From the NCBI GenBank assembly GCA_023898345.1, contig CP060218.1:1087926-1151925 (forward strand): a stretch of DNA of 64,000 bases, written 5' to 3'. The position numbers were made by a program, and so were the translations under genes. A model generated the notes under the pieces. It was given only the letters and a program-made list of their open reading frames with translations. It was not told where the DNA came from and searched no databases. The stretch comes from Candidatus Woesearchaeota archaeon (GTDB lineage Archaea; Nanobdellota; Nanobdellia; Woesearchaeales; UBA583). Each line of letters starts with the position of its first letter. Within the stretch, counting starts at the first letter, position 1. Shown piece after piece: positions 15,086-35,928 of this stretch.

Positions 15086-15144
15086 AATCTTAGTTTTGTT
15101 GAGCTTTGCTGTTTCTTTCTTTTGTGATACCCACGAGACGGGAA

Positions 15145-15154: not shown

Positions 15155-15182
15155 TCCTTTAGACTCTCTCCTTTAAAAATCC

Positions 15183-16532: not shown

Positions 16533-16540
16533 GGGCGTCC

Positions 16541-16777: not shown

Positions 16778-16815
16778 ACTCTAAAAGATTTACAAAGGCT
16801 TTTTCTGCTTTCTGC

Positions 16816-17607: not shown

Positions 17608-17704
17608 AGTTTCTCCTTCTTTTTTTTATATATAAAATTTCGCCTCTCTTTAATCAAAACAAAAACTCAAAAAGTAAAATTATTAATGTACAAAGTACAA
17701 TATT

Positions 17705-20700
17705 ATGAGAAAAGAAACCTACTCTCAGATGCGAAAGAGCAAAGCTAGGAAAGTCCTCGCAAGAATTATTTTCCTCTTTTTTATTCTCTTTTACTCTAGT
17801 ACTCTTCTTTTCTCCTCTTCAAGTGTAAAGGCTACTAGTTACGATCCTCCTTGGTGGGACTACCATTACCTTTATCGGCAGGAAATTAATGTGAGTTGGC
17901 CAAGCTCTGGTATTACACAGTACACGGCAAATCTTATCCTTAATAGTAGCAATACGGGAGGAAACTTTAGTTTTACAAGTGATAGAACTTCATTGAGAAT
18001 TGTCTCTTATAATAGCAGTTCAAATAGTAGTACAGAAATCGGCCATTATTCTGCTGACTGGAGTGCTGCAAACCAAAATGCAACTGTACAAATTTTAATC
18101 CCTTACCTTGTTAATTCTGGTGCTTCACGAATTTTTCTTTACTATAAGTATCCTTCTGGAATAAGTTCTGAGACTTATTGTGCTCCATATATCTATTGTG
18201 ACCAATTTGAAGATGCAAGTATTAATGCTTCTCTTTCAAGTGTGGACAATGATGCAAATTCAGGAACTGCTTTCTCTGAAGGCTCTGGAGTTCTTAGTCT
18301 TACTGCGGGAGGATCAGATACTTGGACTGGAGCTGATGAATATAGTTCTGTCTTTTTGAATAACATTGCTGGAGATGTTGAGGTCCTTCTCACAGCAGTT
18401 AGTCAGACAAACTCTAACTCTTGGGCTAAGGCCGGAATTATGTTCAAAAATGACATGACAAGTGCAGGATCCTCTACAGGATATATTTTCAATGTGCGAA
18501 GGCCTGTTGATGGTTATGCTATGCAAACAGATGAAAATAATAATGGTTATCTTGAAACAAATAGTAATGGCGGCAATCCTTCTGCAAATCCTAGCTATCT
18601 GCGAGTTATTAAATCAGGAACTACGTTTAGAGGAGATTATTCAAAAACGGGATACTCGGGTTGGACTAATCTTGGTGGGACGAGAACAATTTCTTCTACA
18701 AATAGCATACAAGATATTGGTATTTCTTTGACTTCCCATGGAGGAGCTACGCTTTGTACTGCTACCTTTGATAACTTTATTGTAAAGCGTTATTCCACAT
18801 CCAGTCCGTCGGCTTATACTTATGGTACAGAGGAAAAACTTGAGGGCATCTACATTATTTTAGATTCTCCTCTTAATGGAACAAATTTCTCTTCTGCAAA
18901 TTTACCCATTAATGTGAGTTTAACTGAAACAGGGAATCTTAGTTATAGTATTGATGGTGGCTCTTTTATTACTGCTTGTACAAACTGTGACAATTATACT
19001 GCAACTCTTGTTTTTTCAAGTGGTGTGCATAACATAAGCTTTTATGCAATTGATGTTCTTAGTGGAAATAGTAGTTCTCAAACTAGTGAGTTCTTTGTCG
19101 ATGCAGAAAACCCCATTATAACTCTTATCTCTCCAAATACAAGTCAAAGTACTTCTGACCTTTCAGTTCAGTTCACGTTCCAAGTTAATGATTCTTCGGC
19201 AATTAATTCTTGTTCTTTGTACATTGAAAATATGCTTGTTGCTACAATGAATAGTCCTAGTAAAAATACAAATCTTAGTTTTGTGACTACAATGTGTTCA
19301 AAAACTTCAGATTGGTTTATCAGTTGCACGGATGCCTTTAATAAAACAACAAATAGTAGTACTTTGCAAATACTGTCAAAGTTCTTAGCTCCTTGGTGGA
19401 ATACAAGTTTCCTTTCTCGCAAAGAAATTATTCTTCATTCTGATCTTACGAGTTCTCTTTCAAATTATCCTGTTTATCTGGATATTGAAAAAACTGCTCA
19501 AATGCAAAGTGACTTTTCTGATCTGCGGTTTGTTCATTATGAAAATCAAACGAATACGACAACTCCTCTTTCTTATTTCATTATCTCAACAAATGCTTCT
19601 CATGCTAGGATTTGGGTAAATGTTACAACGATTACTAGTCAAAATGAAACGGTCCTCTATTTGTACTATGAAAATGATTCAACTGTTTCTCCTCTTAGTT
19701 CTGCTGCAAGTGTTTTCTTTTCAAATCAGATTTGGCTTAATTCTTTTAGCTGGCCTTATCCGAGTGTTGCGGATTATGCGTACTCACACCAAGACTTTGA
19801 AGATGCTCTTGCTTTGAATCCGAGTATTTTCGGAAATGGAACTGCTACACAAATTTATGAAACTTCAAATCCGTATGGTAGTGATGATATGTTCTTCTTG
19901 CAATATCGTCTTCTTTTCTTGGCAAATGAGAGCGGTACTACATACTTTGGAACGGACAGTGATGATGCTTCGGAAATTATTCTCAAGACTGATGATGACA
20001 GAAATTATAGTTCTACTATTGCAAGCTGGTATGGCGCTCATGGAACTGTCGGCAATTACAACACGTACAGTGGATCTTTTTCAACGAGTTCTGGAAATGG
20101 ATATTGGGTTGAGTATCGGATGCAGGAAAATGCTGGCGGACAAGCTGCGGATATGGGTGTTCGTTTGCCTTCTGCTGGAGCTTACAGTAGGGCAAGCACT
20201 ACGAATTTCCCGAATACCTTCTATTACAGGGAATATAGAGAAGGAAGTGAACCTCAGATGCTTTGTGTTGGTGATGAAGAAAGCCAAAATAACCCTCCAA
20301 CTCTTACTCTTTTGAGTCCTGTTAATGCTTCTAAGATTGTGCAAAATTCAACCGTTACTTTTTTGTGGAATATTAGTGATGAGAGTACAAATCTGACGTG
20401 TAAGTTTTTCTTGGATGGGATTTTGAACAGCAGCTTTAATTGTACATCAGGTAATAATTCCTTGTCTCTTGACTTAGATAGGGGTGTGCATAATTGGACT
20501 GTTGAAGCAAGTGATGAACAAAATGAATCTACAAATTCTTCAACATATTATTTTACATTAATTTATGATAGTGCTCTGCACTTTGAAAAGGAATTGAAAA
20601 ATATTAACACAAATCAATTTATTGTTACTTTTAACATTTCTAATCTTTTGAACAATATTTCAATGAATGCTAGTGTGCATGACTTTGTCGCTCTAAACTT

Positions 20701-20884
20701 TAGTGATGGTTCTCACACGCCAATGTATGACAGCACGTTTGATATTTATGGTCCTTTTTTCTTTGGAACAATTCGGGAATGGAATGTGAGTTTGTCTCTT
20801 TCTGGAAATGCGAGTCTCAATTATTCAAGTGCCGGAATTTCGGATTATCATGCTTCTGATTTGTTTATGTTTGGTGGCGATTAG
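17705..20884 (+). CDS. Large N-glycosylated surface protein (S-layer/adhesin-like) with two DUF2341-like domains
   Basis: 1059 aa with an N-terminal signal/anchor, more than 40 N-x-S/T sequons, and two DUF2341-like segments (WWDYHYLYRQEINVS... and WWNTSFLSRKEIILHSDLTSSLSNYPVYLDIEKTAQMQSDFSDLRFVHYENQTN). Confidence 0.75.
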   Translation: MRKETYSQMRKSKARKVLARIIFLFFILFYSSTLLFSSSSVKATSYDPPWWDYHYLYRQEINVSWPSSGITQYTANLILNSSNTGGNFSFTSDRTSLRIVSYNSSSNSSTEIGHYSADWSAANQNATVQILIPYLVNSGASRIFLYYKYPSGISSETYCAPYIYCDQFEDASINASLSSVDNDANSGTAFSEGSGVLSLTAGGSDTWTGADEYSSVFLNNIAGDVEVLLTAVSQTNSNSWAKAGIMFKNDMTSAGSSTGYIFNVRRPVDGYAMQTDENNNGYLETNSNGGNPSANPSYLRVIKSGTTFRGDYSKTGYSGWTNLGGTRTISSTNSIQDIGISLTSHGGATLCTATFDNFIVKRYSTSSPSAYTYGTEEKLEGIYIILDSPLNGTNFSSANLPINVSLTETGNLSYSIDGGSFITACTNCDNYTATLVFSSGVHNISFYAIDVLSGNSSSQTSEFFVDAENPIITLISPNTSQSTSDLSVQFTFQVNDSSAINSCSLYIENMLVATMNSPSKNTNLSFVTTMCSKTSDWFISCTDAFNKTTNSSTLQILSKFLAPWWNTSFLSRKEIILHSDLTSSLSNYPVYLDIEKTAQMQSDFSDLRFVHYENQTNTTTPLSYFIISTNASHARIWVNVTTITSQNETVLYLYYENDSTVSPLSSAASVFFSNQIWLNSFSWPYPSVADYAYSHQDFEDALALNPSIFGNGTATQIYETSNPYGSDDMFFLQYRLLFLANESGTTYFGTDSDDASEIILKTDDDRNYSSTIASWYGAHGTVGNYNTYSGSFSTSSGNGYWVEYRMQENAGGQAADMGVRLPSAGAYSRASTTNFPNTFYYREYREGSEPQMLCVGDEESQNNPPTLTLLSPVNASKIVQNSTVTFLWNISDESTNLTCKFFLDGILNSSFNCTSGNNSLSLDLDRGVHNWTVEASDEQNESTNSSTYYFTLIYDSALHFEKELKNINTNQFIVTFNISNLLNNISMNASVHDFVALNFSDGSHTPMYDSTFDIYGPFFFGTIREWNVSLSLSGNASLNYSSAGISDYHASDLFMFGGD

Positions 20885-20916
20885 GGAAGAAAGGGGATAA
20901 GAGATTGGTAAAGTAG

Positions 20917-22308
20917 TTAGAATTCTTGAATGACTTTTGCTAGAATTTCGTTCACGACTTGCGGCTTTGCTGTTCCTTTGGTCTCGCGCATGACGATGCC
21001 GACAATGAAGTTCAGTGCTTTGTCGTTGCCGTTCTTGAAATCCTCTACTGCTTTTGGTGCTTCTCTTAAAGCTTTTCTCAGGAGTTCTTCTATGAGCGCC
21101 GTGTCCTGAACTTGGAGGAGATTGTTTTCTTCAACATATGCCTTGATGTCGAATTTCTCATCATACAATTTTTCGAGAAGTTTTTGTGCTGTCGTGTAAG
21201 AAATCTTGTCTGAACCGAGAAGCTCAAGTAGGTTTGAAAGTTCTTCTTTGATGTTCTTTTCTTCTAGTGTGTGCATATCTTCATGATGATAATTCAAAAC
21301 TCTTGGAACTTCTCGACGAAGGAAAAGTCCAACTTCTTTTGGGTTGGGTTTTTGTTCTAGTGCGTGCTCAAAGAGCTGGGTTAAATATGCGTTTGCAACT
21401 AAAACTTCAATGTCTTCTTTTGAAAGGGAATAGGCTGCATACCTTTGGCGTTTCTGTTCTGGAAGTTCTGGCAATGATGCTTTGAGCTCAGCTATCCATT
21501 TGTCGTCGATGATGAGATTGGGAAGGTCTGGCTCTGGAAGGAACATATAATCTTGTGCGTCTTCTTTGGAGCGCATAAACTGCGTTTCGTCTAGTTCGTC
21601 GTTGTAACGGCGGGTCTCTTGCTTTATTGGCTCTCCTTTACTTACACATTCTCTTTGTCTTGCTATTTCTGCTTCTGCTGCTTTGACGATGTTTGTGATG
21701 GAACTTACGTTTTTTATTTCTACTCTTTGATAGTCGGACTCTTCAATGGAAACATTGACGTCGGACTTTATTCCGTACTCTTCGTTGAGCGCTTTGAGGT
21801 ATTTGGAAACTAAAATGAGTTCTTCAAGCCAGTCGCGTAATTGTTCTGTACTGGTGAACTGGGGTTTTGTCACGATTTCTGCAAGGGGAAATCCACTTCT
21901 GTTATAATTAATTTCTCCTGTTACGGGATCCCATGCTGCTGGGTCTTCTTCTATGTGCAGTTCTTCAAGTTCAATTCCTTTGAAGCTTCCTCCTATTCCG
22001 TTTGGCGCTATGTGTCCTCCGGAAATGGTTCGCTGAAATCCTGTCGGCATGTCTGGCCAGGTGTAGTGTTTTCTTTGAAAGTAAGTGTTTTTTGTGATGG
22101 AAGAATTGAAAATCAAAGCTAATTTTATGACATGCGCAATTGCTGTTTTGTTTGGCAGCATTGGCTTTGCGCCCGGCTGGCCTGTACAGCGCTCGCAGAT
22201 TGTCGTGTTTATTGGAGAGTTTTGTTCAGGTATTTTGCAAGTACAAAAGAGCTTTTCCTTTGTCCTGAGATGCATGTGTATTTCAAGACCTATTTTTATA
22301 TTTCCCAT
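20917..22308 (-). CDS. gatB: Asp-tRNA(Asn)/Glu-tRNA(Gln) amidotransferase subunit B
   Basis: IGLEIHMHLRTKEKLFCTC...CERCTGQPGAKPMLPNKTAIAHVIKLALIFNSSI matches the conserved GatB N-terminal region. 463 aa with C-terminal GatB/YqeY-like helices. Confidence 0.9.
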   Translation of the reverse strand: MGNIKIGLEIHMHLRTKEKLFCTCKIPEQNSPINTTICERCTGQPGAKPMLPNKTAIAHVIKLALIFNSSITKNTYFQRKHYTWPDMPTGFQRTISGGHIAPNGIGGSFKGIELEELHIEEDPAAWDPVTGEINYNRSGFPLAEIVTKPQFTSTEQLRDWLEELILVSKYLKALNEEYGIKSDVNVSIEESDYQRVEIKNVSSITNIVKAAEAEIARQRECVSKGEPIKQETRRYNDELDETQFMRSKEDAQDYMFLPEPDLPNLIIDDKWIAELKASLPELPEQKRQRYAAYSLSKEDIEVLVANAYLTQLFEHALEQKPNPKEVGLFLRREVPRVLNYHHEDMHTLEEKNIKEELSNLLELLGSDKISYTTAQKLLEKLYDEKFDIKAYVEENNLLQVQDTALIEELLRKALREAPKAVEDFKNGNDKALNFIVGIVMRETKGTAKPQVVNEILAKVIQEF

Positions 22309-22397
22309 AGTTTTGGCGAAATGACGGAGCTTTATATATGTTTGTCGTTTGTCTTTGTGAAGATTTGGAAAAAGGAAATGTCTATTGTTTCCCTTCT

Positions 22398-25136
22398 CTA
22401 CTCATAACTAATGCCTTCTTCAAAAAGCTGGAAAACTTCGTCGCCGTTCAAGCTTGTATTCCACACACTGATTTCATCGAGAAGGCAATTCACTTCGTAG
22501 CTGGCTGTGGGGTGGCGGCCAAAGTAAAGCGAAGCTTCGGGGAGTGTATTTTCAGCGCCACTTTTGCTCCCGATAAAAGTGCCGTTAAGGTAGTATTGCA
22601 AACCGGAACTTGTGCTGACGAAGGTGACATGGTGCCAGGTGTTCAATGAGAGTTGGCCAAAGGCATCGTATTCGTATGTCCCGTTTCCAAGCAGCGCATC
22701 TATTGTTCTGTCGCCGGGCCAGTTCAAAACTGTTCCTTGGCCGAGGTATCCGACGTCGGAGTTTGTCACTAAGTATTTGTTGCCGCTGCCGCTGCGAAAG
22801 TTCACCCAAAAGGAAAGTGTTTTGATTGTTCCATTGATGGGAAGATCTAGATAGCTTGTGCCTGATGTTCCGGGGAGGTCAAAGGAGGAGCCGTCAATGC
22901 CCCAACTGTTATAGGTCACGGAGCTGCCTTTGCTGCCGTCATGGTGATAGGAGGAATTGTCGAGTACGGAATTTTCGCCTTTCCAATGACCGAGTAAACT
23001 TGCATTTGCTGGAAGGCCGGAGTTACTTGGTGGTGAGGTTGGTGTGTCAAAGTTTTCCATGCTTGCTGCATAGAGTTGGTAGATGCTGCTTTGGTTAAGG
23101 GAAACACCCCACACACTGATTTCATCGAGAAGGCAATTCACTTCGTAGCTGGGTGTTGGGTGTCTTCCAAGGTAAAGGGAGGCTTCGCTAAGGGAATTGA
23201 TGGCTCCGACTGTTAGGCCTTTGTACGCGCCGTTGAGATAGTACTCTTGGCCTGAGCCTGTGCTGACGAAGGTGACGTAGTACCAGGTGTTCAAAGAGAG
23301 GGTTCCGAAATCATTGAAGGCATATACTCCGTTTCCGAGAAGGGAGTCTATTGTTCTGTCGCCGGGCCAGTTCACAACGGTTCCTTGGCCGAGGTATCCG
23401 ACGTCGGAGTTTGTTACGAGGTATTTGTTGCCGGTGCCGCTGCGAAAGTTCACCCAAAAGGAAAGTGTTTTGATTGTTCCATTGATGGGAAGATCTAGAT
23501 AACTTGTACCTGATGTTCCGGGGAGGTCAAAGGCTGTTCCGAAGGGGCCGGAGGTGGTGTACGTCACGGCTGATCCGAGTGTGGCGCTTTTGTTGTTTGC
23601 TGAACTGTCGAGGGAAGTATTTTCGCCTTTCCAGTATCCGATTAAACCGTAGCTGTTGTTAAAGGGGGAAACTGGGGCAAGTTCTTCTTCGCTTACAAGG
23701 CTGTACTTTTGCGGACAGTCCAAAGCGTTACAGTCGCTTGCACTCACAACAACGAGCCACTGCCCGGACTCGATTTCGCTTGTATTCACGTACACTTGCT
23801 CGACGTTGTTGAGGTGATCGCTTTCGTTACGCCAAGCTTCTCGTGCGGGTGTGTTCGGGTCGAGTGTCCAGGGATAGAATGTTTGTCCGGATGGCGATAG
23901 GAGTTTGAGGTCAAGGTCGTTGATGAGGTTGGCTCCGGGAACGTCGTCCCAAGCTAGCGTTACTTTGAGTGAGCTTTGTGCGCTGATGTTGATTGCGTAC
24001 ACGTCCACGTCAGAGATGTCTGAAATGTTTGCTTCTAGGAATGTTCCGTTGATGATTCGGTCCACAGCTCCTTTGGCGTTGAGTAGTCCGTACCCGTTCA
24101 CGTAGTCGGGGCCGTCGATGATTTCACTCCCGTTGCCGCTACGGTGTAGGTCTGTCGTCGAATCTAGCAAAAGGGCTTTGATTGTCGATGGGAGCGGGTC
24201 TTCGTCGTAGCCGGACTTGTTCCACCGTTCGAGCATAAGCGCGATGGTTCCACTGACGTGTGGCGCTGACATGGAGGTTCCGCTAACAGTTGCATAATTA
24301 TTTGTTCCATTTGTAGTTGTGATTCCATTTCCAGGTGCAACTAAATCAGGTTTTATTCTTCCACCATTTGTTGGACCAAGTCCCGATGTAAAGCTAATAA
24401 CACCACTGTCGTAAACATTACCTACGGAAATGGTGTTTTTTGCAACTGCTTCTGGAGCAATAGTAAAATACCCCGTTGTTAGATTACAGTTTTGAGAATT
24501 ACCAACAGCCCAAACTATTGGAACTTTTCTAGTTGTATAATTTCCATAAACCAATTCATCTATTAATTGAGTAAAAGAATTATATTCTCCCAATACTTCA
24601 CATTGCTTATGTCCATAGGAATTTGAAATTACATTAATACTGTAATTATCAATTCCAGTTTTATAGTTAGATTCTAAGTCATAACTATATCCAAAAGGTA
24701 ATAAATCTTCTTGGTACCCATAAATTTTTGCTTCAGGAGCTACCCCAACATAACTTGAATTTAGATTTCCGTCCCCTATCATTATACCTGCAACCCTAGT
24801 TGCATGGTCTGATGTAGAAGGAGCCAAATTTAAGATTTGTAGTCTAGTTGCAAAATCTGTATGGTTACTCGCAACTTCTCTTTCATATTGTAAAATATTT
24901 ATATTGCTCCCCTGTAAATCATAAGGGTTTTCATAAAGAATAGGAATTTTACTAACATTTTTAGAACTATCTAAAAAATTTTTGCTATTCTGTAATTCAA
25001 CATCAATAAATAATATTTCGTCTGTATTGGATAAGATGAATAATGTTTCTTCATATGTGAGAGAATTTGAAAATGCATTAACTGAAAGTAATAATATCAT
25101 CAGTAATAAAAATTGACTATTTTTAAAATAACTCAT
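22398..25136 (-). CDS. Secreted S8 subtilisin-like serine protease with two C-terminal LamG/concanavalin-like lectin domains
   Basis: Signal peptide, catalytic His (HATRVAGIM) and Ser (GTSMSAPHVSGTIALM) motifs, then two ~190-aa tandem repeats (YLDLPINGTIKTLSFWVNFRSG...CLLDEISVW). The start overlaps the upstream gene by 4 nt. Confidence 0.9.
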   Translation of the reverse strand: MSYFKNSQFLLLMILLLSVNAFSNSLTYEETLFILSNTDEILFIDVELQNSKNFLDSSKNVSKIPILYENPYDLQGSNINILQYEREVASNHTDFATRLQILNLAPSTSDHATRVAGIMIGDGNLNSSYVGVAPEAKIYGYQEDLLPFGYSYDLESNYKTGIDNYSINVISNSYGHKQCEVLGEYNSFTQLIDELVYGNYTTRKVPIVWAVGNSQNCNLTTGYFTIAPEAVAKNTISVGNVYDSGVISFTSGLGPTNGGRIKPDLVAPGNGITTTNGTNNYATVSGTSMSAPHVSGTIALMLERWNKSGYDEDPLPSTIKALLLDSTTDLHRSGNGSEIIDGPDYVNGYGLLNAKGAVDRIINGTFLEANISDISDVDVYAINISAQSSLKVTLAWDDVPGANLINDLDLKLLSPSGQTFYPWTLDPNTPAREAWRNESDHLNNVEQVYVNTSEIESGQWLVVVSASDCNALDCPQKYSLVSEEELAPVSPFNNSYGLIGYWKGENTSLDSSANNKSATLGSAVTYTTSGPFGTAFDLPGTSGTSYLDLPINGTIKTLSFWVNFRSGTGNKYLVTNSDVGYLGQGTVVNWPGDRTIDSLLGNGVYAFNDFGTLSLNTWYYVTFVSTGSGQEYYLNGAYKGLTVGAINSLSEASLYLGRHPTPSYEVNCLLDEISVWGVSLNQSSIYQLYAASMENFDTPTSPPSNSGLPANASLLGHWKGENSVLDNSSYHHDGSKGSSVTYNSWGIDGSSFDLPGTSGTSYLDLPINGTIKTLSFWVNFRSGSGNKYLVTNSDVGYLGQGTVLNWPGDRTIDALLGNGTYEYDAFGQLSLNTWHHVTFVSTSSGLQYYLNGTFIGSKSGAENTLPEASLYFGRHPTASYEVNCLLDEISVWNTSLNGDEVFQLFEEGISYE

Positions 25137-25423
25137 TTTTCATAGCACCTCTCTAGTACACATTGGTGATCTTCATTACAGGAAGTTCCGCAATAATCAT
25201 TAAGGCAAACACTTCCAAAGTTAGTACTACCTTTTTTCTCATGATATAAATTTACACCTTGACAATCTATATAATCAAAGCGACATTCACTATCTTGTTC
25301 ACAATACTGCTTATCCAGCATGTACTTTGGATGTGTTATCCAAGCAGGATTGAGTATTAAGTAGATGGCAATTAAGACAAGAAATATACTTCCCAGAATA
25401 ATTGCTAATTTTTTCTTATTCAT
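25133..25423 (-). CDS. Small Cys-rich membrane-anchored/secreted protein (family member Cys0), translationally coupled to the subtilase
   Basis: 96 aa with N-terminal TM LAIILGSIFLVLIAIYLIL and 10 Cys (YCEQDSECRFDYIDCQG...CLNDYCGTSCNEDHQCVLERC). ATGA stop/start overlap with the subtilase. Confidence 0.65.
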   Translation of the reverse strand: MNKKKLAIILGSIFLVLIAIYLILNPAWITHPKYMLDKQYCEQDSECRFDYIDCQGVNLYHEKKGSTNFGSVCLNDYCGTSCNEDHQCVLERCYEK

Positions 25424-26172
25424 TCTTCATCACCAACATAAACACGTACTGTCAAAGCATGAAGAGTTTGAAGCTGACTTACAACATTCAAACCTTTTTT
25501 CTCAAGTACTATTTGAGCATCATCAAGAGATACATCTTTGTGAATATGAACAGTCAGATACGCATAAGCTTCTTCATCAAGATAATCACTACTTAAGGTA
25601 TTTGCTTGGAGAACAGGGCCAAACTTTTGCTCAAGGCTAAAATCTAAAACTGAACGAATTTTTGTACTCCCTAAAAAAGAGTTTAGTTGCGGATTATAAT
25701 TGAGATTTGAAAAATTTGTTTGGTCTGATTCAAGTACGTACTGAGTCGAACTAGGACTTACGGCTACAAGGTAAGCATTTGCTCCTTGATATTCGAGAAC
25801 ATTTATTCCTTTCTCAAAGAGAACAGATATGTCCTCTTTTGATAAGGGTGTAAAAAATTGAAAGACTAAATAAGACTGAGAATTTGCATTCCTTAGTTTT
25901 TCTCTTAAATCATCATCAATGCCTTCAGTAGGAACGGTTTTGCTTGTTTTTAGAATATACTTTTCTAAAGCTTGCTTTTTGTCATATACTTTTATATTAC
26001 TTAAAGACGAGTTGCTTTCATTCAACTCCTTTACCTCCAAAGATGAATTTTCAGAACTGAGATTTTGAGCGTAAACTAATCCTACAAAGACTAACAAGAA
26101 CAAAAGAATTGTACCTGCGAACAGTTTTCGTATCATAGTTTTATAGACTTTTTTTTTGAAATATTTTTTCAT
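25420..26172 (-). CDS. Secreted hypothetical protein (N-terminal TM/signal); shares the conserved upstream leader block with the Cys-rich genes
   Basis: Start chosen at the internal ATG (MKKYFKKK...MIRKLFAGTILLFLLVFVGLVYA). The ORF-track N-terminal extension (FKTNHIKK) is translated promoter sequence shared with 26645..27082 and 27485..27871. Confidence 0.5.
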   Translation of the reverse strand: MKKYFKKKVYKTMIRKLFAGTILLFLLVFVGLVYAQNLSSENSSLEVKELNESNSSLSNIKVYDKKQALEKYILKTSKTVPTEGIDDDLREKLRNANSQSYLVFQFFTPLSKEDISVLFEKGINVLEYQGANAYLVAVSPSSTQYVLESDQTNFSNLNYNPQLNSFLGSTKIRSVLDFSLEQKFGPVLQANTLSSDYLDEEAYAYLTVHIHKDVSLDDAQIVLEKKGLNVVSQLQTLHALTVRVYVGDEE

Positions 26173-26289
26173 GCTTTTTACTCTCCAAATTCTTTTCTTT
26201 ATATGATTTGTCTTGAAAACTGAGGTTATGCTAAAAAGAATTACAAACAAAAATATTATTGCTTTCATTTTGCACGCACACATGAATTA

Positions 26290-26564
26290 TTTATTGAACA
26301 CTTATTATTGACACAATTTGAAATTCCACAAGTAACTATTTTGCAAATTCCTGTTTCTTCATAATTTGTTTGGTAAACATTGATTGGTTCACAAGTAGCA
26401 AATTGGAAACAATCACTATCTTGCTCACAATACTACTGTTTATCCATCATATCTTTCGGATGAGTTATCCAAGCAGGATGTACAATTACATATATTACCA
26501 ATGTCATAAGCAAAATACTTCCAACTATGAAGCCGATTTTTTTTGAATTTATCTTAACCATTTT
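26290..26564 (-). pseudogene. Paralog of the Cys-rich protein family interrupted by an in-frame TAG (3-nt insertion)
   Basis: Manual translation gives MVKINSKKIGFIVGSILLMTLVIYVIVHPAWITHPKDMMDKQ*YCEQDSDCFQFATCEP...CVNNKCSINNSCVRAK. Versus 25133..25423 the only disruption is an inserted tag codon (cagTAGtattgt vs cagtattgt). Confidence 0.55.
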
Positions 26565-26644
26565 TTTGAATATTTTTTTTGAAATTCTTTTCTTTATATG
26601 AAAACAAAGAAAGAGAGAAAAAGTAAGGTTTTTTTCTATTCATT

Positions 26645-26959
26645 TTAACTTTCCCCTCCTGCCTGTAAGAGGACAGCACATTTATTGTCAGACCCACAGG
26701 AAATTACTATCCCCGAATTGCTACACTCCGTAGTATTCCAGTTATTAGAAAAATATTTATTGCCTAAAGAACAATTTGTAGAGATACAATCATCCCCTTT
26801 TTCGCAGTACAAAGGGTCGTTCAAATACCTCACATCAATGCCCATGTAATACGCTTTGATATTATTCTGATACATAAAACCAAGGGCAATAAGGCACAGC
26901 ACAATAACTATGCTCCCAACAAAAATCTTTTGTTTCTCACCTATGTTTATCTTAACCAT
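26645..26959 (-). CDS. Small Cys-rich membrane-anchored/secreted protein (Cys1)
   Basis: Start at internal ATG (MVKINIGEKQKIFVGSIVIVLCLIALGF...). Shares the DVRYLNDPLYCE..DC motif with the paralogs. 9 Cys. Confidence 0.6.
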   Translation of the reverse strand: MVKINIGEKQKIFVGSIVIVLCLIALGFMYQNNIKAYYMGIDVRYLNDPLYCEKGDDCISTNCSLGNKYFSNNWNTTECSNSGIVISCGSDNKCAVLLQAGGES

Positions 26960-27074
26960 TTTTTTGAATATTCTTTTTGAATTTTTTTTCTTTATATGAT
27001 TTGTCTTGAAAATTTTCACCTTTTTTTGTTTTTTCAAAGCGTAGTTTTTTCTGTATGAAATATCTCTACAATTC

Positions 27075-27262
27075 GCTCCCATTCACGTACACTTGCTCGA
27101 CGTTGTTGAGGTGATCGCTTTCGTTACGCCAAGCTTCTCGTGCGGGTGTGTTCGGGTCGAGTGTCCAGGGATAGAATGTTTGTCCGGAGGGTGAGAGGAG
27201 TTTGAGATCTAAGTCGTTGATGAGGTTGGCTCCGGGAACGTCGTCCCAAGCTAGCGTTACTA
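27075..27262 (-). pseudogene. ~190-bp internal fragment of the subtilase gene (copy of ~23774..23960, about 93-95% identity)
   Basis: Encodes LAWDDVPGANLINDLDLKLLSPSGQTFYPWTLDPNTPAREAWRNESDHLNNVEQVYVN, identical to subtilase residues ~390-450. No start and no catalytic residues. Confidence 0.8.
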
Positions 27263-27484
27263 ATTCCTTTTTTTGACTAAAAATTAGAATCTCCAATAAT
27301 TACCTCTGTATCTTGTTTAGATGAGTAAGGAGTAAGCTGAATTTTTTGTAAGTTTGTGGCATTTGTTTCATTTCTCGAAAAAAGGTTAAGAGATTCATTT
27401 TGTTCGAGATATTATCTGAAGCTAAAATAGGCCCAATAATTAAGTGAAAAAACATTGTTATGAAGTAAAATAGGAAAGAGGTTT

Positions 27485-27811
27485 TCATTTTTGATATTTT
27501 TCCTCCCAACAAACTGGACTATTATTTGCTACACATTTATTGTTAGAACAAGATTTATCACAAACCTCAAGTTGACATTGTGAATCACCTTGCGTATTGA
27601 AACGATTGATAACAGTGCAGCGTTCTATAACACAATCTTCTTTGCTTTCGCAATAATAGGGGTCCAGTAAATATCTTACATCTACACCTTTATACTCTGC
27701 TTCGATATGATGTCTGAAACTAAATATGCCAACTAGCAGTAATAAAAATAAACTTACTAGACAAAATATTACTTTTTTCTCCTTCAATTTTTTTGAATTT
27801 ATCTTAACCAT
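27485..27811 (-). CDS. Small Cys-rich membrane-anchored/secreted protein (Cys2)
   Basis: Start at internal ATG (MVKINSKKLKEKKVIFCLVSLFLLLLVGIF...). Contains the DVRYLLDPYYCESKEDC motif and 11 Cys. A TATA-like tcatataaag lies ~30 nt upstream, conserved across the family. Confidence 0.6.
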   Translation of the reverse strand: MVKINSKKLKEKKVIFCLVSLFLLLLVGIFSFRHHIEAEYKGVDVRYLLDPYYCESKEDCVIERCTVINRFNTQGDSQCQLEVCDKSCSNNKCVANNSPVCWEEKYQK

Positions 27812-27924
27812 TTTTTTGAATATTTTTTTTGAAATTTCTTTCTTTATATGATTTGTCTTGAAAATTTGCAAAACATTTTTTTTTTCAAAGCGTAGTTTTT
27901 TCTGTATGAAATATCTCTACAAAT

Positions 27925-28125
27925 TGCTCCCATTCACGTACACTTGCTCGACGTTGTTGAGGTGATCGCTTTCGTTACGCCAAGCTTCTCGTGCGGGTGT
28001 GTTCGGGTCGAGTGTCCAGGGATAAAATGTTTGTCCTGTGGGCGAGAGAAGTTTGAGGTCAAGGTCGTTGATGAGGTTGGCTCCGGGAACGTCATCCCAA
28101 GCTAGTGTTACTTTGAGCGAGCTTT
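27925..28125 (-). pseudogene. Second ~200-bp internal fragment of the subtilase gene (copy of ~23774..23985)
   Basis: Same boundaries at the 5' side as fragment 27075..27262 (both begin ...ctcccattcacgtacacttgctcgacg). Lies upstream of Cys2. Confidence 0.8.
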
Positions 28126-28479
28126 GTTTTTTCTTTGATTTTGAGGAAGCATTTTATGGGAAAAGAGAATCTGATATTGGGTATTTGCACTATAGATTAG
28201 AATTCTCAGAGGAGGACTTGAAATATGTCGTCTTATTTACAGACTATGACTTATGGAAAATCTTGAATTATGCTGTCCTTGTCGGAATTCGAAAAGTTGC
28301 AAATTCACCTGAAGATGAATTGAGGAAAAGAATTGAGAAATTGGGAAGAATGTATGAAAATTTAGAAAAGTTGACAAAGCTAAGAAAAAATACTCAGACC
28401 TGAACTTCTTCTTTTTCTTTGTGCTCTTCAAGTTTCAAACAACAATTCATTTAAAGCAAAAAAAACTTCTTTCTTTGTC

Positions 28480-28551
28480 GCACCTGTAGCTCAGTGGTAG
28501 AGCGCTTGCCTCGTAAGCAAGAGGTCGGGGGTTCAAATCCCCCCAGGCGCT
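28480..28551 (+). tRNA. tRNA-Thr (anticodon CGU)
   Basis: Manual cloverleaf: acceptor GCACCTG/CAGGCGC (one A:C mismatch at 3:70), D-arm GCTCAGTGGTAGAGC, anticodon stem CTTGC/GCAAG with loop CT-CGT-AA, T-arm GGGGGTTCAAATCCCCC, discriminator T, no encoded CCA. Followed by a T-rich tract. Confidence 0.85.
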
Positions 28552-28558
28552 TGTGTTT

Positions 28559-30874
28559 TTACAGTGTTCCTGAATCTCGCTTTTGTATTTTTTCTTCTTC
28601 GATTCTTGCAAGTTCTTTCTTAATGTATCGTTTGTACCAGTCTTCAAACTCGCTAAAGATTTGTCGTGGGTCGAGATGTCCTAGTTCGTCATTTACTTTC
28701 TCTGCTATTTTGTGAAACATATCGTTTGCATCAAGAACACATTGTGCTTCGAGAAGTGAGGGAAGAAGGAATTTGGCGGCGCAGTCTACTTGTAATTGCT
28801 TTATTCTTGAACGAAGTCGAATGTTCTCCCAAATGGCATCCCAGTTTCCCGCAAATTGTTTGACGTTTGCTCCTATTGCTTTGAGGATGTCGGATTCTCC
28901 ATTAATGAGTTCGTCAGAAATTTCTAGTTTGTCGGTCTTTGAATTATACTTGAAAAGATCGGAGAACCCTCCTTCTAATAATGGGTCGTTATCCCACTTT
29001 TTTCTTACTTCTGTTATTTGGGTAATTCTTCTTACTCTGTGAAGTCCATCGGCACTTTTTACGGGGTTTGCAACTACGATGATGTCTGTTGCTTTGAAGG
29101 AGGTGTTTGGAACTTTAAGATCATTCACGAGTCTGTCGTACACACCAAAGGGACTGTCTCCGTGGATGGTTCCTGCTACGACGTTTGCTAAAGCTCCGAC
29201 ACGCATGGCTTCGTACAGTGCCAGTGCTTCTGTCGAACGAACTTCTCCTACGATAAGACAGGAATCTCCTAAACGAAGTGTACTACGAATTCCCATGTCA
29301 GCGCTCATTCCTTCTTTGGACACGGAAAGTGCGCTTCGTACGCTTAGTGCTTGAAGATTGTAACCTAATTTTGAAAATTCAATTGAGGGTAATTCTAAGG
29401 TGTCTTCAACGGTTATGATTCTGTACTTTCTCATTATCTCCAATATGATTGCTGTTAAAAATGAGGATTTTCCTGAACCTCTTGTTCCTGCTATTAAAAT
29501 GGTTCTTGCTCCATCTACAATAAAACTCAAGAGTCCTGCTGCCTCTGCACTGATCATTCCATTTTTTATGAAAAGCGGCAAAGTCCAGGGTTTGTTTCTG
29601 TGGCGTCTGAAGGAATAACCGATTCCGTAGGGATTGAGTGGTTTTCCAACAGCTGAAACACGCGCTCTGGCAGTTGGCGTCTGAATTTCTGTATCGAGAA
29701 GAGGATTTGACGCGTCAAGTGGTTTTCCGGACATCATTCTCAAACGTGATGCCCAGCCGTCTACTTCATCTTGCTCTGGAATAATATTTGTTCGACAATC
29801 TTCGTAGTCAGAATGTGTCAGAAAAATGGGAGTTTTGTTTGCTGGCGAATTGACGCTAATGTCCTGCACTTTCTCATCATCTAGCAAAACTTCAATTGGC
29901 CCAAAACCGACAGTGTAACGAATGAGTATGTCGGCTAGTTCTTCGAGCTCTCTTTGGCGTAGTCGTACTCCTTTGAAATCTGCGATTTCTTCAATGAGAT
30001 CTCTTGAGATATTGTGAAAAATTTCTCGCAGTCTTTCTGGATCAATAAAATCATTTGATTCTGGTTGGTGTTCTGCAATGACTTCTTTTGCTAAGTTTAA
30101 AATTCCGTACTTTTCGTCACTTAGCATAAACTCTGTTGGCGTCAAATGATAGAGGTTGTTCGCTTCTTTGTCGAGCTCGAAGATGGTTACTTTGCCGTGG
30201 GGGAGTGTGTAGGAGTCTAATTCTTTTGCTTCGATGGGGTAACGTTTGAGCAGGGAGGTGTAAATAAAATTTGGCTTGATGTTGGCTGAAAAAAAATCTT
30301 TGTAAATATAGCGCGATCCAATTTTGTGTCCGGACAAATGTGCTTTTGTTTTTCGTACGATTGTTAGGGTTTCAACTCTCATGAGCAAATAGCCAAGTGC
30401 AGCTTCGTACTTGTTGTCTACTTCTGCACAACGTTGTTCTGAATTTTCTTTCTCGAACTTGTAGTCTCGCAAACGGCGTTTCAAAGAAACATAGGTTCCG
30501 ATGGGATCAGAGGGGAAATCTTTGAGGATGAGATTTTGTAGTTCGGCGTACCTGTTGAAAAAAAGTTTAATACAAAAATCGTCTTTGGAACTTATTTCAC
30601 TTGGAGAGAATAAATCTTTTTGTTTTGTAAGATGAAGAAAGAGACGAGAAACTTCTTTGAGGAGTTCAACTTGCTCATTGTTGTACTCGTAGTTCTTGTT
30701 GTGGATGAGAATTATCTTTGTCGTGGATGGCATGGCGATTAACTTTGTAATGATGTCTCGCATAACAAAGCCGTTGTCCTCAATCGAAGGAAAATTTTCT
30801 TTTCCTAGGTAATTTATCTTTAAAATGGACTCTACACCGTGTTTTACGAGCTCAAAGTCCTTTCTTTCAAACAT
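28559..30874 (-). CDS. Type IV pilus/archaellum-family secretion ATPase (FlaI/PilB/VirB11-like) with long N- and C-terminal extensions; orphan (no adjacent platform gene)
   Basis: Walker A IAGTRGSGKSSFLT. Paralogous to 57875..59599 (shared ...RLGDSC.I.GE.R..EA..LYEAMRVGA..NVV.GTIH.D...GVYDR.VNDL). 771 aa versus about 550 typical. Confidence 0.85.
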   Translation of the reverse strand: MFERKDFELVKHGVESILKINYLGKENFPSIEDNGFVMRDIITKLIAMPSTTKIILIHNKNYEYNNEQVELLKEVSRLFLHLTKQKDLFSPSEISSKDDFCIKLFFNRYAELQNLILKDFPSDPIGTYVSLKRRLRDYKFEKENSEQRCAEVDNKYEAALGYLLMRVETLTIVRKTKAHLSGHKIGSRYIYKDFFSANIKPNFIYTSLLKRYPIEAKELDSYTLPHGKVTIFELDKEANNLYHLTPTEFMLSDEKYGILNLAKEVIAEHQPESNDFIDPERLREIFHNISRDLIEEIADFKGVRLRQRELEELADILIRYTVGFGPIEVLLDDEKVQDISVNSPANKTPIFLTHSDYEDCRTNIIPEQDEVDGWASRLRMMSGKPLDASNPLLDTEIQTPTARARVSAVGKPLNPYGIGYSFRRHRNKPWTLPLFIKNGMISAEAAGLLSFIVDGARTILIAGTRGSGKSSFLTAIILEIMRKYRIITVEDTLELPSIEFSKLGYNLQALSVRSALSVSKEGMSADMGIRSTLRLGDSCLIVGEVRSTEALALYEAMRVGALANVVAGTIHGDSPFGVYDRLVNDLKVPNTSFKATDIIVVANPVKSADGLHRVRRITQITEVRKKWDNDPLLEGGFSDLFKYNSKTDKLEISDELINGESDILKAIGANVKQFAGNWDAIWENIRLRSRIKQLQVDCAAKFLLPSLLEAQCVLDANDMFHKIAEKVNDELGHLDPRQIFSEFEDWYKRYIKKELARIEEEKIQKRDSGTL

Positions 30875-31333
30875 ACTCTGATTAGGGAGAAATTTTATTT
30901 AAATAAAAGTGACTACTTTTGGAAAATAACAAATAGTTTCCAGTAATTTCCTCCAATCTCATGCCATTTCTTGGAGTCTACCAAAATATTTATAAATGAT
31001 TTCCACATTATTTAGTTTGCTCATGACTCAAATGAGCGGGCAACTTACTCCTTTTCAAGATGTAAAAGTCTTGGAAAGGATTTCTCTACTTCTGATTTCT
31101 TATTTCTGGAATTCTAATCTCAATACAGTTTTACAATCGTTTCTGAAAAAGTACTGCAAATTAAAGAAGAAATATTCTGAAAAAAATCTGTCCCTTGCAA
31201 AAACAACAGGAAAGAATTTTAAACGAAAATCCGCAAACTTTGTGTATCTAAGACAAGCCAAAGAGGTTTTTACGGTTTTGTTGAAGAACTTGGGTGTCTT
31301 AGACTTCTACCCAACCGAAAAACCGTTTCAAAT

Positions 31334-32290
31334 ATGGCTGAAAAAAAAGAATTAACTGTTTCCGACCTTCCTGGTGTTGGTCCTAGTACTGCAGAAAAAC
31401 TTGCTGCTGCAGGAATTGATACTTTGCTTGCTGTTGCTGTTTCTTCCATTGGCGTTCTTACGGAGGAAGCTGGCGTTTCTGACTCTGTTGCTCGTAAGAT
31501 GATTCAAGCTGCTAGAGATATGCTTGATATGGGCTTTGAGACGGGAGACGTCATACTGGAGAAGCGACAAAAGGTCAACAAGATTAAGACTGGTTCGCAA
31601 AGTTTTGATGAGATTATGGGAGGTGGTTTTGAAACTGGTGCGATTAGTGAATTATTTGGTGAATTCGGTTCTGGAAAAACTCAGGTTGCTCACCAACTCG
31701 CTGTGAATGTACAAAAACCTGAAGAGGAAGGTGGTCTAAATGGGAAGGTCATTTACATTGACACGGAAAATACTTTTCGTCCTGAACGTATTATTCAGAT
31801 GGCAACTGGCGCTGGTCTTGACCCTAATGTCTGTCTTAAAAATATAAAAATTGCAAGAGCCTACAATTCTGATCATCAAATGTTACTTGCTGAAAAAGCT
31901 GAGGATTTGCTTAAGGAAGGAACGTACAAGCTTTTGATTGTGGATTCCTTGACGGCGCATTTCAGAGCTGAATTTATTGGAAGAGGAACTTTGTCGGAAC
32001 GTCAGCAAAAACTCAACAAACACATGCACACACTTTTGAAGGTAGCTGATATGTACAACTGCTGTGTTATTGTGACGAACCAAGTTATGGCAAAACCTAA
32101 TGTTATGTTTGGTGATCCTACTCAGGCAATCGGTGGTCACATTGTCGGGCACAGCTCAACATTTAGAATCTATCTTCGAAAGGGGAAAAAAGGTTCAAGA
32201 GTTGGAAAGCTTGTCGACTCGCCAAACTTGCCTGAGAATGAATGTATGTTCTTTGTGAATGAGTCTGGTCTCAACGACAAGGAATTGTAA
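31334..32290 (+). CDS. radA: DNA repair and recombination protein RadA
   Basis: N-terminal HhH region [20 protein letters not shown], Walker [10 protein letters not shown], and typical RadA length of 318 aa. Confidence 0.92.
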
Positions 32291-32394
32291 ATATTCATTT
32301 CTCTTATCCAAACAAGTTCAAAAAATCTTCTTTTATTCAACTCCAAAAAATCTTTATAAATATAAAGCTGTGTCCATTAACTGCACAGTGTAAA

Positions 32395-33549
32395 ATGTAT
32401 AAACAATTACTCAAAAAAATTGCGCACTTTCAGATTCAGCATCCGGTGTTTACTATTTTACTGATTATTAGTTTGACCATTGCTATCTGGGGCGGAGTGA
32501 ACAAAGTTCAAACTGTGGCTTCTTTAGAGCAGATGATGCCTAAGACAACTCCTGAAATCAAAGCTTTTAATGTTCTGCGAGACAATAATCTTGGTGAAGA
32601 CATGATTGCTATTGTTTTCGAACTCAACAGAAATTCTACTCTGACAACAGGGACAAATGATATTCTTGACATTCGAGATTATCTTGGAGTAGTACAACAT
32701 GAACTGCTTCAGGAACATGATATTCTCGATGTGTATAGTATTGCTTCTCTTCCTGAAAACTCAGATATGTCGGCGTATGTCAATGATGACCATTCTAAAA
32801 CTATTATGTTAGTGAGAACGGACATTGCTGCAAACGACTACAGAATGAATCAACTTTCTTCTGAGGTTCAGGACATTGTGGATTCTGTTGGAAAACCTAG
32901 CAATATTGATATTCATTATACGGGAACTCCGATTATTCAACAGAAACTTGGTGTTCTTATTAATCAAGATAGAAATAGTACACAGTGGATTTCAACTCTT
33001 TTTGTTTTCGTTATTATTATGCTTGTCTTTCGTTCTTTTCTTTCTGCTATCGTTCCTATTCTTGTCGTTTTTGTCAGTGTTAACTGGCTCTACGGAACTA
33101 TGGGCTACACACACTTGCCGATTTCCACTTTGGCGGGTGGTGTTGCTGCAATGGTTATTGGAATTGGAATTGACTTTGCTATTCATATCATGAACAAATT
33201 CAAACATGAAAGAAAAAACGGGCACAGTATTGAGACGAGCATAGAACTTGCGGTCATTGAAACGGGAACTGCACTTAGTGCTACGTCTCTTACGACTATG
33301 GTTGCTTTCTTGGCATTTCTTTTTGGAGATATGCCGGAGATGGGAAGATTTGGAATGCTTATGGCAATCGGAATTGTCTACTCCTTTATTTTCTCCATTT
33401 TTGGACTTCCTGCTCTTTTAATCATGGAAGAAAAAATCATTTATCATATTAAGAAAAAAATGAAGTTTGGAATTGAGCATGAATTTCATCTTGAAGAGGA
33501 AAAGAAAAGCAAAACAAAAAAGCTAAATGGAGGTGCTGAGCATGTTTGA
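32395..33549 (+). CDS. RND-superfamily exporter (MMPL/COG1033-like), N-terminal half
   Basis: N-terminal TM, ~170-aa extracytoplasmic domain, then 5 clustered TM helices (sterol-sensing-domain-like). The next gene has the same architecture. Confidence 0.6.
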   Translation: MYKQLLKKIAHFQIQHPVFTILLIISLTIAIWGGVNKVQTVASLEQMMPKTTPEIKAFNVLRDNNLGEDMIAIVFELNRNSTLTTGTNDILDIRDYLGVVQHELLQEHDILDVYSIASLPENSDMSAYVNDDHSKTIMLVRTDIAANDYRMNQLSSEVQDIVDSVGKPSNIDIHYTGTPIIQQKLGVLINQDRNSTQWISTLFVFVIIMLVFRSFLSAIVPILVVFVSVNWLYGTMGYTHLPISTLAGGVAAMVIGIGIDFAIHIMNKFKHERKNGHSIETSIELAVIETGTALSATSLTTMVAFLAFLFGDMPEMGRFGMLMAIGIVYSFIFSIFGLPALLIMEEKIIYHIKKKMKFGIEHEFHLEEEKKSKTKKLNGGAEHV

Positions 33550-34645
33550 AAAGTTTGCTTCAGGCCTTGTTCAGTTGCAAGTTAAGTTTCCTAAATTTTT
33601 CTTGTTTGCCTTTCTTCTTATTAATCTGGCATTTATTCCTGGAATTTTTAACTTGGTAAGTAATGTTGAGCCTTCTCTTGAGAGGGTTCTTCCTCAGAAT
33701 ATTCCCGAAATTCAAACGATGAATGATATGAGAGGAGAATTTGGCGCTGACATGATTTATCTTGTTTTGGAGGGAAATGGAAGGACTGTCGACATGCGTG
33801 ATCCTGAGGTTCTTCGTTACATTAATCTTCTTAGTGAAAAAATAGAAACGGAAGAAAATGTTCTGGAAGTTCAAAGTGTTACGACATTTGTCGGCGTTCC
33901 GAAAACTCTTTATGAGAGTCAGGATCTTATTGCTCAAACGCCACAGGTAAATACGTTCATTAATGATGATTACTCTCTTGCGGTTATTGCAATTCGTACA
34001 AACACGGGTTCGTCGGCTGAGATTATTAACAAGGTTGTTGAACAAATTCAGGACGATATTGAATCTCTTGAAGTGTACAATCCACATCTTTCTCTTAGCA
34101 TTACTGGTTTTAGTGCAATTGACAGAGCAACCTTTAACATCATTATTAATGATTTTCTTAAGATTACGATTGTCTCTATGATTGGAATTTCCATCATTGT
34201 TTTTTTCACGTTCAAGTCCTTCGTCAAAGGGATGCTTCCTATGGCGGTTGTCATGAATGCTCTTATCTGGACGATGGGAATTGTTGGCTATCTTGGCTTT
34301 ACGATAACGGTTGTTAGTATGGTGAGCGCTGCTATGATTATGGGTCTTGGAATTGACTTTGGTATTCATCAGGTTCATAGTTATTTTGAAGCTAGAAAAA
34401 AACATCAGCCTAAGAAAGCTTTGGAAAGTGTCATGGAAGAATTACTTCGTGCTATGTTTGGTGCGAGTATGACGACAATTGCGGGATTTTTGGCGCTGCT
34501 CTTTGGCGTGCTTCCGGCAATGAAAACTTTGGGTGTTATTTTAGCAATAGGAATTTTTTCAACTCTTATTGGCGCAATATTATTATTGCCTGTTTTAATT
34601 TACCTTTATGACAAAGGACAAACTCTCGATTCACATTCAGCATAA
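33542..34645 (+). CDS. RND-superfamily exporter (MMPL/COG1033-like), C-terminal half
   Basis: Same TM / extracytoplasmic domain / 5-TM architecture. Its start (MFEKF at 33542, or 33527) overlaps the stop of the first half. Confidence 0.6.
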   Translation: MFEKFASGLVQLQVKFPKFFLFAFLLINLAFIPGIFNLVSNVEPSLERVLPQNIPEIQTMNDMRGEFGADMIYLVLEGNGRTVDMRDPEVLRYINLLSEKIETEENVLEVQSVTTFVGVPKTLYESQDLIAQTPQVNTFINDDYSLAVIAIRTNTGSSAEIINKVVEQIQDDIESLEVYNPHLSLSITGFSAIDRATFNIIINDFLKITIVSMIGISIIVFFTFKSFVKGMLPMAVVMNALIWTMGIVGYLGFTITVVSMVSAAMIMGLGIDFGIHQVHSYFEARKKHQPKKALESVMEELLRAMFGASMTTIAGFLALLFGVLPAMKTLGVILAIGIFSTLIGAILLLPVLIYLYDKGQTLDSHSA

Positions 34646-34647
34646 AA

Positions 34648-35928
34648 ATGGAAAAAAATACGCAAAGAAAAAAACTGGACTTTGGAACTTTTTTCAAAAG
34701 TTTTCTTGGTCTTTTTGTACTGCTCAGTTTTGCACAAGTTAGCTTTGCAGATCTGCAATTGAACTACATTCACTTTGACCCTGCAATTATTTCTGCAGGA
34801 GATGAGGTTGACATTGTTATTCAGTATGAAGCTCAAAATGCTCCTTTTGATTCTAGTAAAATTGGAGACGACGAGTATAGTTTCAATGTTAAGCTTGAAG
34901 CTGACGACGACCTTACGGAGAAATATATTTTAATTACGGACAGTAGGGGCGACGATGTTAAGGGAACTTTGTACTCTGGCGAAAAATACTATAAAACTTT
35001 TAAGGTTAAGGTTCTCAATAATGCTCCTGCTGCAAACTACGAATTTAAACTTGTTGGACAGTGGTACAAAAATGGAAATGCTCTTGATTACACTGAGGAG
35101 CTGACTTTTGAAATGCCTGTCAAAAAGGAAGGAATTATTTTGGATATTTCCAGCATAACGACAAATCCTAATCAGGTTCGTCCGGGCGACAAGTTTGTCG
35201 AACTGTACACTTCTTTGGAAAATGTCGGCGAAAAAACTGCGAAAAATATTAAGGTGAAACTTAGTGCTCAAGAAGGAATTGATCCTAGCTATTCTGATAA
35301 TAATGAATTGTCTGTTGGAAAATTAGCGTCTCAAGAATCAAAGGATATTGACTTTACAATTAATCTGGATGACGAACTTAAAGCTGGCGAATACACTTTG
35401 ACGTACACGCTTGAGTATATGGACTTGGATGATAATTCGTACACGCTTGAGAAAAATATTTCTTTGCTTGTGAAAGAAAAACCTAATCTTGTTATTGAAA
35501 AGGTCGAAGGTGAAGGACTTGCTGGTTCTAGCTCAACCCTAAAGGTTTGGGTGAAGAATGTCGGTGAAGAGAGTGCTGAAAGTGTTGATGTGAGAGTCTT
35601 AAAACAAAGTTCTCAACCTTTTGAATTTGACTTTAGAAGTTCTTTCATTGGTGAACTTGAACCTGGTGAGACTGGTCTTGCTGTGTTTGACATTGATGTT
35701 CTGGACAGTGCTGACATTAAGGCTCATGATTTAAAATTGGTCTTGAGGGCAAAGGGAGACACTGACGAGGGTGACGACAATATTTACACGTTCAATCGGC
35801 GTGCGTACTTTACGGTAACGGGTGTGAAACAGAACTCGTATGTGTATGTTGGTCTTGGACTCTTTGCTCTTTTGGTCATTGGATTTTTAGTTAAGGGGAG
35901 GAAAAAGAAACATGAAGGAAAAAAATAG
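34648..35928 (+). CDS. Secreted CARDB/S-layer-domain-like protein with C-terminal TM anchor
   Basis: Signal peptide, repeated beta-rich ~100-aa modules, and a C-terminal VYVGLGLFALLVIGFLVKGRKKK anchor. It starts 3 nt after the RND genes. Confidence 0.55.
   Translation: MEKNTQRKKLDFGTFFKSFLGLFVLLSFAQVSFADLQLNYIHFDPAIISAGDEVDIVIQYEAQNAPFDSSKIGDDEYSFNVKLEADDDLTEKYILITDSRGDDVKGTLYSGEKYYKTFKVKVLNNAPAANYEFKLVGQWYKNGNALDYTEELTFEMPVKKEGIILDISSITTNPNQVRPGDKFVELYTSLENVGEKTAKNIKVKLSAQEGIDPSYSDNNELSVGKLASQESKDIDFTINLDDELKAGEYTLTYTLEYMDLDDNSYTLEKNISLLVKEKPNLVIEKVEGEGLAGSSSTLKVWVKNVGEESAESVDVRVLKQSSQPFEFDFRSSFIGELEPGETGLAVFDIDVLDSADIKAHDLKLVLRAKGDTDEGDDNIYTFNRRAYFTVTGVKQNSYVYVGLGLFALLVIGFLVKGRKKKHEGKK

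Follow-up and report, generated by a model that had tools for sequence, protein, structure and literature searches.

A tandem array of Cys-rich genes

The window, by which we mean the whole 64-kb stretch of DNA that was analysed, carries four genes of a family of small proteins (90 to 110 aa) in which an N-terminal hydrophobic segment is followed by a domain with about eight or more cysteines. One of the four is interrupted by a TAG codon. This TAG copy belongs to a tandem array that, in a Candidatus Woesearchaeota (DPANN) archaeon, encodes small Cys-rich proteins with a putative membrane anchor. The organism is assigned by the names that identical proteins carry and by archaeal-type neighbouring genes, for example RadA. 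The features of the locus are as follows.

26265..26561, minus strand: pseudogene, a disrupted ORF whose small protein would have had a transmembrane segment at the N-terminus followed by a Cys-rich domain (98 codons plus stop, from translation)
26433..26435, minus strand: inserted triplet, an in-frame TAG at codon 43 (from translation and DNA alignments)
26431..26437, minus strand: AGTAGTA, tandem duplication of AGT/GTA, ancestral CAGTAT having become CAGTAGTAT (from alignments with the ortholog DNA L007 and the paralog)
26433..26561, minus strand: still-translatable 42-codon product MVKINSKKIGFIVGSILLMTLVIYVIVHPAWITHPKDMMDKQ, membrane anchor only, without the Cys-rich domain (from ORF translation)
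26562..26601, minus strand: TATA-like box TCATATAAAG and leader, conserved in other cassettes and intact here (repeat families D3/D4 and alignments)
26602..26644, minus strand: region upstream of the TATA-like box, in which the conserved TTTTCAAGACAAA is missing and ...CTCTTTCTTTGTTT is found instead (from alignments)
25133..25423, minus strand: closest intact paralog in the window, 96 aa
25420..26172, minus strand: downstream gene for a 250-aa protein, with its own copy of the promoter block at 26166..26219
26645..26959, minus strand: intact paralog, 104 aa, with the same promoter/leader cassette
27485..27811, minus strand: intact paralog, 108 aa, with the same promoter/leader cassette, identical to protein P0006
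27025..27261, minus strand: S8 peptidase gene remnant, 3' end only (...VYVNGSEL*), with a cassette downstream (repeat family D1)
27876..28112, minus strand: second remnant of an S8 peptidase 3' end, 95% identical to the first and 80% identical to the full gene at 23728..23964

The original prediction placed at 26290-26564 a Cys-rich copy that reads DKQ*YCEQ where the paralog at 25423..25133 has DKQYCEQ, in a frame otherwise intact through all Cys codons. These limits were slightly off, as the ORF runs on the minus strand from an ATG at 26561..26559 to a TGA at 26267..26265, but the feature itself is present. The minus strand reads gat aaa cag TAG tat tgt gag caa at the lesion, the paralog lacks the extra codon, and this TAG is the sole in-frame stop inside an ORF that keeps all of its Cys codons. 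The translation is MVKINSKKIGFIVGSILLMTLVIYVIVHPAWITHPKDMMDKQ*YCEQDSDCFQF...NNSCVRAK, with the asterisk standing for the TAG, and the same 42-aa ORF is called in assembly GCA_002505525.1 (P0031). When the sequence 3' of the TAG was scanned for ATG, GTG and TTG, the only in-frame start was a single GTG located six codons before the end of the ORF, so the Cys-rich domain of this copy cannot be made separately. Translation would end at the TAG and give at most a 42-residue membrane stub, and presumably no full-length protein is made from the TAG copy.

A repeated block containing a TATA-like box precedes three Cys-rich copies and the 250-aa gene at 25420..26172; in the Cys-rich copies the block also includes the leader, TTTTCAAGACAAATCATATAAAGAAA...ATTCAAAAAAATG. 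The promoter and leader of the TAG copy had been described as intact, which is correct for the part from TCATATAAAG to the ATG (26601..26559) but not for the sequence upstream of it. TTTTCAAGACAAA lies directly upstream of the TATA-like box in the intact ortholog introduced below, as it does in the window's three other cassettes. The corresponding TTTTCAA(G/C)ACAAA block (with ACAAAT) next to TCATATAAAG has been lost in all three haplotypes that carry the TAG, and its place is taken by unrelated sequence, the tail of the 3' flank of the preceding gene. By its position and sequence (ACAAAT) the lost block resembles an archaeal BRE, and its loss may weaken the promoter of the TAG copy.

Each of the two 237-nt S8 peptidase remnants, which end in ...VYVNGSEL* and ...GSNL*, sits just upstream of a promoter and Cys-rich gene cassette, and the full S8 peptidase gene occupies 22398..25136. 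On another contig (L008), an S8 peptidase reading frame, of which the 3' part was read, ends identically and directly upstream of a promoter and Cys-rich gene. Given this unbroken junction, the pieces in the window are remnants of such peptidase genes that were carried along in duplications. L008 (JAGRAE010000267.1) is a 2.6-kb contig binned in a 'Bdellovibrionales' MAG and is probably a mis-binned Woesearchaeota contig; it was the only find in a scan of genome contigs, and two scans of JGI metagenomes returned nothing. Short signal-peptide-like ORFs, which are truncated remnants, overlap the stops of two Cys-rich genes (ATGA), and the TGA of the pseudogene overlaps the ATG (ATGA) of a short signal-peptide-like remnant that runs into the promoter of the 250-aa gene. 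The locus is a rearranging paralog array, and a silenced copy is unremarkable there.

Three further family members, all intact, are encoded at another locus of this organism (L009). A Pfam search gave no model for the family; when 1.84 billion representative proteins were searched with a profile, 74 relatives passed E <= 1e-3. An AlphaFold model was of low confidence (pLDDT 65.6), and comparison of that model with PDB folds returned no match. At the N-termini of the Cys-rich proteins (25133..27811), a few lysines are followed by G/A/S and a run of about 20 hydrophobic residues; there is a loose similarity to the class III (type IV pilin-like) signal peptides of archaea, which may be a coincidence. 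The S8 peptidase gene contains a 648-nt internal tandem duplication (86% identity, window 22461..23528) that corresponds to two Laminin_G_3 domains. Beyond a tRNA-Thr, 0.7 kb from the array, lies a gene for a T2SSE/FlaI-type ATPase (28559..30874), and an integrase-core (rve/rve_3) gene, probably that of an insertion-sequence transposase, is found about 12 kb from the array (38163..39047).

Origin and age of the inserted triplet

The closest paralog in the window, at 25423..25133, shares 42% amino acid identity with the TAG copy and reads gat aag cag tat tgt gaa caa, which gives ...HPKYMLDKQYCEQDSEC... in the protein. A search of 5.8 billion protein clusters yielded an intact 97-aa ortholog, P0001 (USN44335.1, H6500_00620), with 89% amino acid identity to the TAG copy over its full length, and three more distant homologs; all of them have DKQYCE. 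In six of six aligned homologs, ...DKQYCE... is read with constant spacing and without an extra codon, and the spacing ...KYMxDxxYCE... is kept in more distant members of the family as well. Using tblastn, homology to P0001 was found to span both sides of the stop (89% identity over 97 residues), and the two parts of the ORF are therefore not a chance juxtaposition.

In the DNA alignment, the ortholog (L007) reads GATAAAC---AGTATTGTGAG against GATAAACAGTAGTATTGTGAG in the window; both L007/P0001 and the paralog have AAAC---AGTATTG where the window has AAACAGTAGTATTG. The ortholog DNA and the six aligned homologs thus bear out the proposal that the stop came from an in-frame insertion of 3 nt and not from a substitution. 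An origin by substitution (TAY to TAG), hinted at by a YY in the paralog at 27485, was ruled out by the indel seen in the ortholog DNA and in all close homologs. Judged from these alignments, the extra triplet is derived and is an exact tandem copy of the adjacent AGT (equivalently GTA). Short insertions are mostly tandem duplications from replication slippage, and the AGT/GTA duplication is typical of that process. Slipped-strand duplication of three bases, from CAGTAT to CAGTAGTAT, made the in-frame TAG just before the first cysteine. The insertion is in frame and disables the gene since the duplicated bases happen to spell TAG, which is the only slightly unusual point.

The TAG is common to three haplotypes from three assemblies that differ at other bases. 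The first of the two besides the window, contig JACJVU010000001.1 (GCA_020637525.1, L001), is 99.47% identical to the window over 20.3 kb; within the disrupted ORF it has the same TAG and three base differences (V2L and two synonymous). Exact look-ups of the 250-aa, 104-aa and 42-aa products of the window gave no match, and the haplotype of the window differs slightly from that of the GCA_020637525.1 deposit. The second, scaffold DAVJ01000030.1 (GCA_002505525.1, L011), was deposited separately, has N gaps at repeats, and was reached through the 42-aa protein P0031 among the representative hits. It has CAGTAGTAT again, with three other base changes in the ORF (Y24E via two bases and one synonymous). 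Divergence among the three TAG haplotypes is up to about 2% in the disrupted ORF, and 17 substitutions in 294 nt separate the TAG copy from the intact ortholog (about 6% divergence, ~94% nucleotide identity). The insertion arose after the split from the lineage of the intact ortholog and before the three haplotypes diverged. A very recent inactivation had been among the options first offered. Recent inactivation is upheld, but an event confined to a single assembly is not, as the TAG is common to three diverged haplotypes.

The original prediction also held it unusual for a pseudogene to carry one stop and otherwise show no decay. In the disrupted ORF, 5.4% of single substitutions create a stop, and in simulations the probability of acquiring no new stop was 0.76 after 6 random substitutions, roughly the number seen among the three TAG haplotypes, and 0.47 after 17. 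A neutral copy thus stays stop-free in 76% of cases at the observed divergence, and the block upstream of the TATA-like box has been lost as well, which speaks against the supposed anomaly. The rest of the frame looks intact because there has been too little time for further damage. Relative to the intact ortholog, dN/dS is 0.41 (6 synonymous and 11 non-synonymous differences), a value that agrees with constraint on the gene over most of its past. The changes among the three TAG haplotypes comprise 3 synonymous and 3 non-synonymous ones, fewer non-synonymous changes than expected for neutrality at a level that is not significant (binomial P = 0.09), and the 55 codons 3' of the TAG contain one difference, which is synonymous. 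The radical Y24E change in L011 places a charged residue inside the membrane segment and is consistent with relaxed constraint.

Nonsense-disrupted pseudogenes of duplicated genes that arise by slippage offer a close likeness. As in those cases, an intact ortholog and intact paralogs exist, duplication of the 3 neighbouring bases accounts for the one disabling lesion, there is little divergence elsewhere in the sequence, and other gene remnants are present at the locus. We found no essential difference between such pseudogenes and the TAG copy.

Switching, decoding and other readings of the TAG

Variation among strains is concentrated around the array. When the window (15133..35419) was compared with L001, all 109 of 109 differences fell within 7.5 kb at 23000..30500, and the flanking 12.8 kb was identical. 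This stretch takes in the Cys-rich array, the 250-aa gene, the peptidase fragments, the tRNA-Thr and part of the T2SSE-type ATPase gene, and it has the appearance of an island that varies between strains or of a tract imported by recombination. Some of the differences are clustered, with 7 within 16 nt in the 250-aa gene (25914..25929, window against L001/L012) and 3 within 9 nt in the pseudogene (26484..26492, window against L011). The clustering suggests patchy gene conversion, but no donor for it was found among the loci compared. The island would suit phase variation, with the TAG copy reversibly turned on and off, or retention of a silent cassette from which the paralog array draws sequence by recombination, as would the conserved promoter and N-terminal cassettes with their variable Cys-rich domains and the fact that AGTAGT is a two-unit repeat that slippage could revert. 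Slippage at high frequency, however, requires far more than two units, each of the three haplotypes is in the OFF state, and an intact allele of the TAG lineage was not found among about 15 billion proteins. Contingency loci based on simple-sequence repeats are alike in having the lesion in a tandem repeat within a variable, surface-protein-like gene family; they are unlike the TAG copy in that the latter has two repeat units, an in-frame stop instead of a frameshift, and no observed ON allele. The regulated on/off variant that had been put forward finds no support in these data, and we consider either a switch or a donor role unlikely.

Stop codon usage bears on whether the TAG is decoded. 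The 42 non-overlapping long ORFs of the window end in TAG (14), TAA (15) or TGA (13), so that TAG accounts for 33% of the stops, and genes ended by TAG stop at natural domain ends (V_ATPase_I profile position 813/815, rve_3 67/67, Na_H_Exchanger 368/375). Because TAG ends 14 of the 42 long ORFs, an efficient suppressor would lengthen a third of the proteome. TAG is a genuine terminator in this Woesearchaeota organism. Genome-wide reassignment of TAG was also considered and was ruled out by the stop codon usage and domain ends. No tRNA with a CUA anticodon and no other suppressor tRNA was detected in the 64-kb window, L001, L009 and L011, which amount to ~95 kb of a genome of probably about 1.5 Mb; the ~95 kb comprise ~75 kb of the window haplotype (including L009, from the sister assembly) and ~20 kb of further sister-haplotype sequence. 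The only tRNAs in the window and three further loci of the organism were Thr-CGU, Val-UAC and Met-CAU. A stimulatory RNA structure was not apparent at the stop, as the 121 nt around and after the TAG gave z = -0.65 relative to shuffled sequence, and the sequence 3' of the TAG is the same in the ortholog, which has no stop. A scan for in-frame single-stop junctions elsewhere turned up shadow frames and adjacent genes only.

These results weigh heavily against the idea that a full-length 98-residue protein is still made from the TAG copy through programmed read-through, a suppressor tRNA or pyrrolysine. The frame 3' of the TAG is open with every cysteine kept, the allele persists in three haplotypes, and few non-synonymous changes have been gained since, points that speak for translation; but efficient suppression is incompatible with the stop usage and domain ends. 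The TAG is moreover present only in the three near-identical haplotypes and missing in the nearest ortholog (about 94% nucleotide identity) and every other homolog, and it is thus not a conserved recoding site. Pyrrolysine decoding of UAG is found in Methanosarcinales and Methanomassiliicoccales. It has also been described in some Asgard archaea (PMC9723677). Such systems share with the TAG copy an archaeal gene that has an in-frame TAG and stays open beyond it. They are unlike the present case in several respects: the organism here does not avoid TAG as a stop, no pylT was present in the sequence scanned, the orthologs lack the TAG, and the gene is not a methyltransferase-type Pyl protein. 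Our literature search found no paper reporting pyrrolysine use or recoding in DPANN archaea, the matches being to Asgard archaea and methanogens. Read-through or suppression, as raised in the original prediction, therefore seems very improbable.

The 42-residue membrane stub might itself be a selected product, in which case the gene would have been shortened and not lost. The start codon, leader and TATA-like box are kept in all three haplotypes, but it is in the stub that most changes among the TAG haplotypes occur, V2L and the radical membrane-segment change Y24E among them, and the block upstream of the TATA-like box is gone; we give a functional stub almost no credence. That the TAG is a sequencing or assembly error in a truly intact gene is hardly tenable either, for although short-read assemblies break up at this repeat-rich locus (as in the short contigs L002 to L007 and the N gaps at repeats of L011) and one Logan contig has homopolymer indels nearby, the same 3-nt insertion recurs in three assemblies whose ORF sequences are otherwise not identical, one of them (GCA_002505525.1) a separate GenBank deposit of a different, gapped assembly, and it lies outside any homopolymer in a stretch that is contiguous and unique in L011. 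The Logan contig (L012, SRR26387399) lacks one base in each of two A-runs, at window positions 25237 and 26157. These deletions put the 96-aa paralog out of frame, yielding protein P0008, and do the same to the start of the 250-aa gene; two such homopolymer indels within 2 kb are more likely to reflect read error than real variation.

A young pseudogene in a variable array

We conclude, with a probability of roughly 0.88, that the TAG copy is an ordinary young pseudogene of a duplicated gene, which arose by tandem duplication of a trinucleotide and became fixed in a sub-lineage of this Woesearchaeota species. The feature is real and its explanation ordinary. There is a slim chance that partial read-through or suppression of the TAG yields some full-length Cys-rich surface protein, or that the silenced copy serves as a recombination donor in a surface-protein cassette array.

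The ORF at 26265..26561 ought to be annotated as a pseudogene and not cited in support of TAG recoding in Woesearchaeota. The copy is of little importance by itself. It does illustrate clearly that duplicating three bases in frame may be enough to generate a stop codon, and that a young pseudogene can be expected to look like an otherwise pristine ORF interrupted once. The array is of interest as an uncharacterised family of small Cys-rich membrane proteins that adjoins S8 peptidases in a strain-variable island, and it may be worth studying in its own right as a locus at which an episymbiotic archaeon possibly varies its cell surface.
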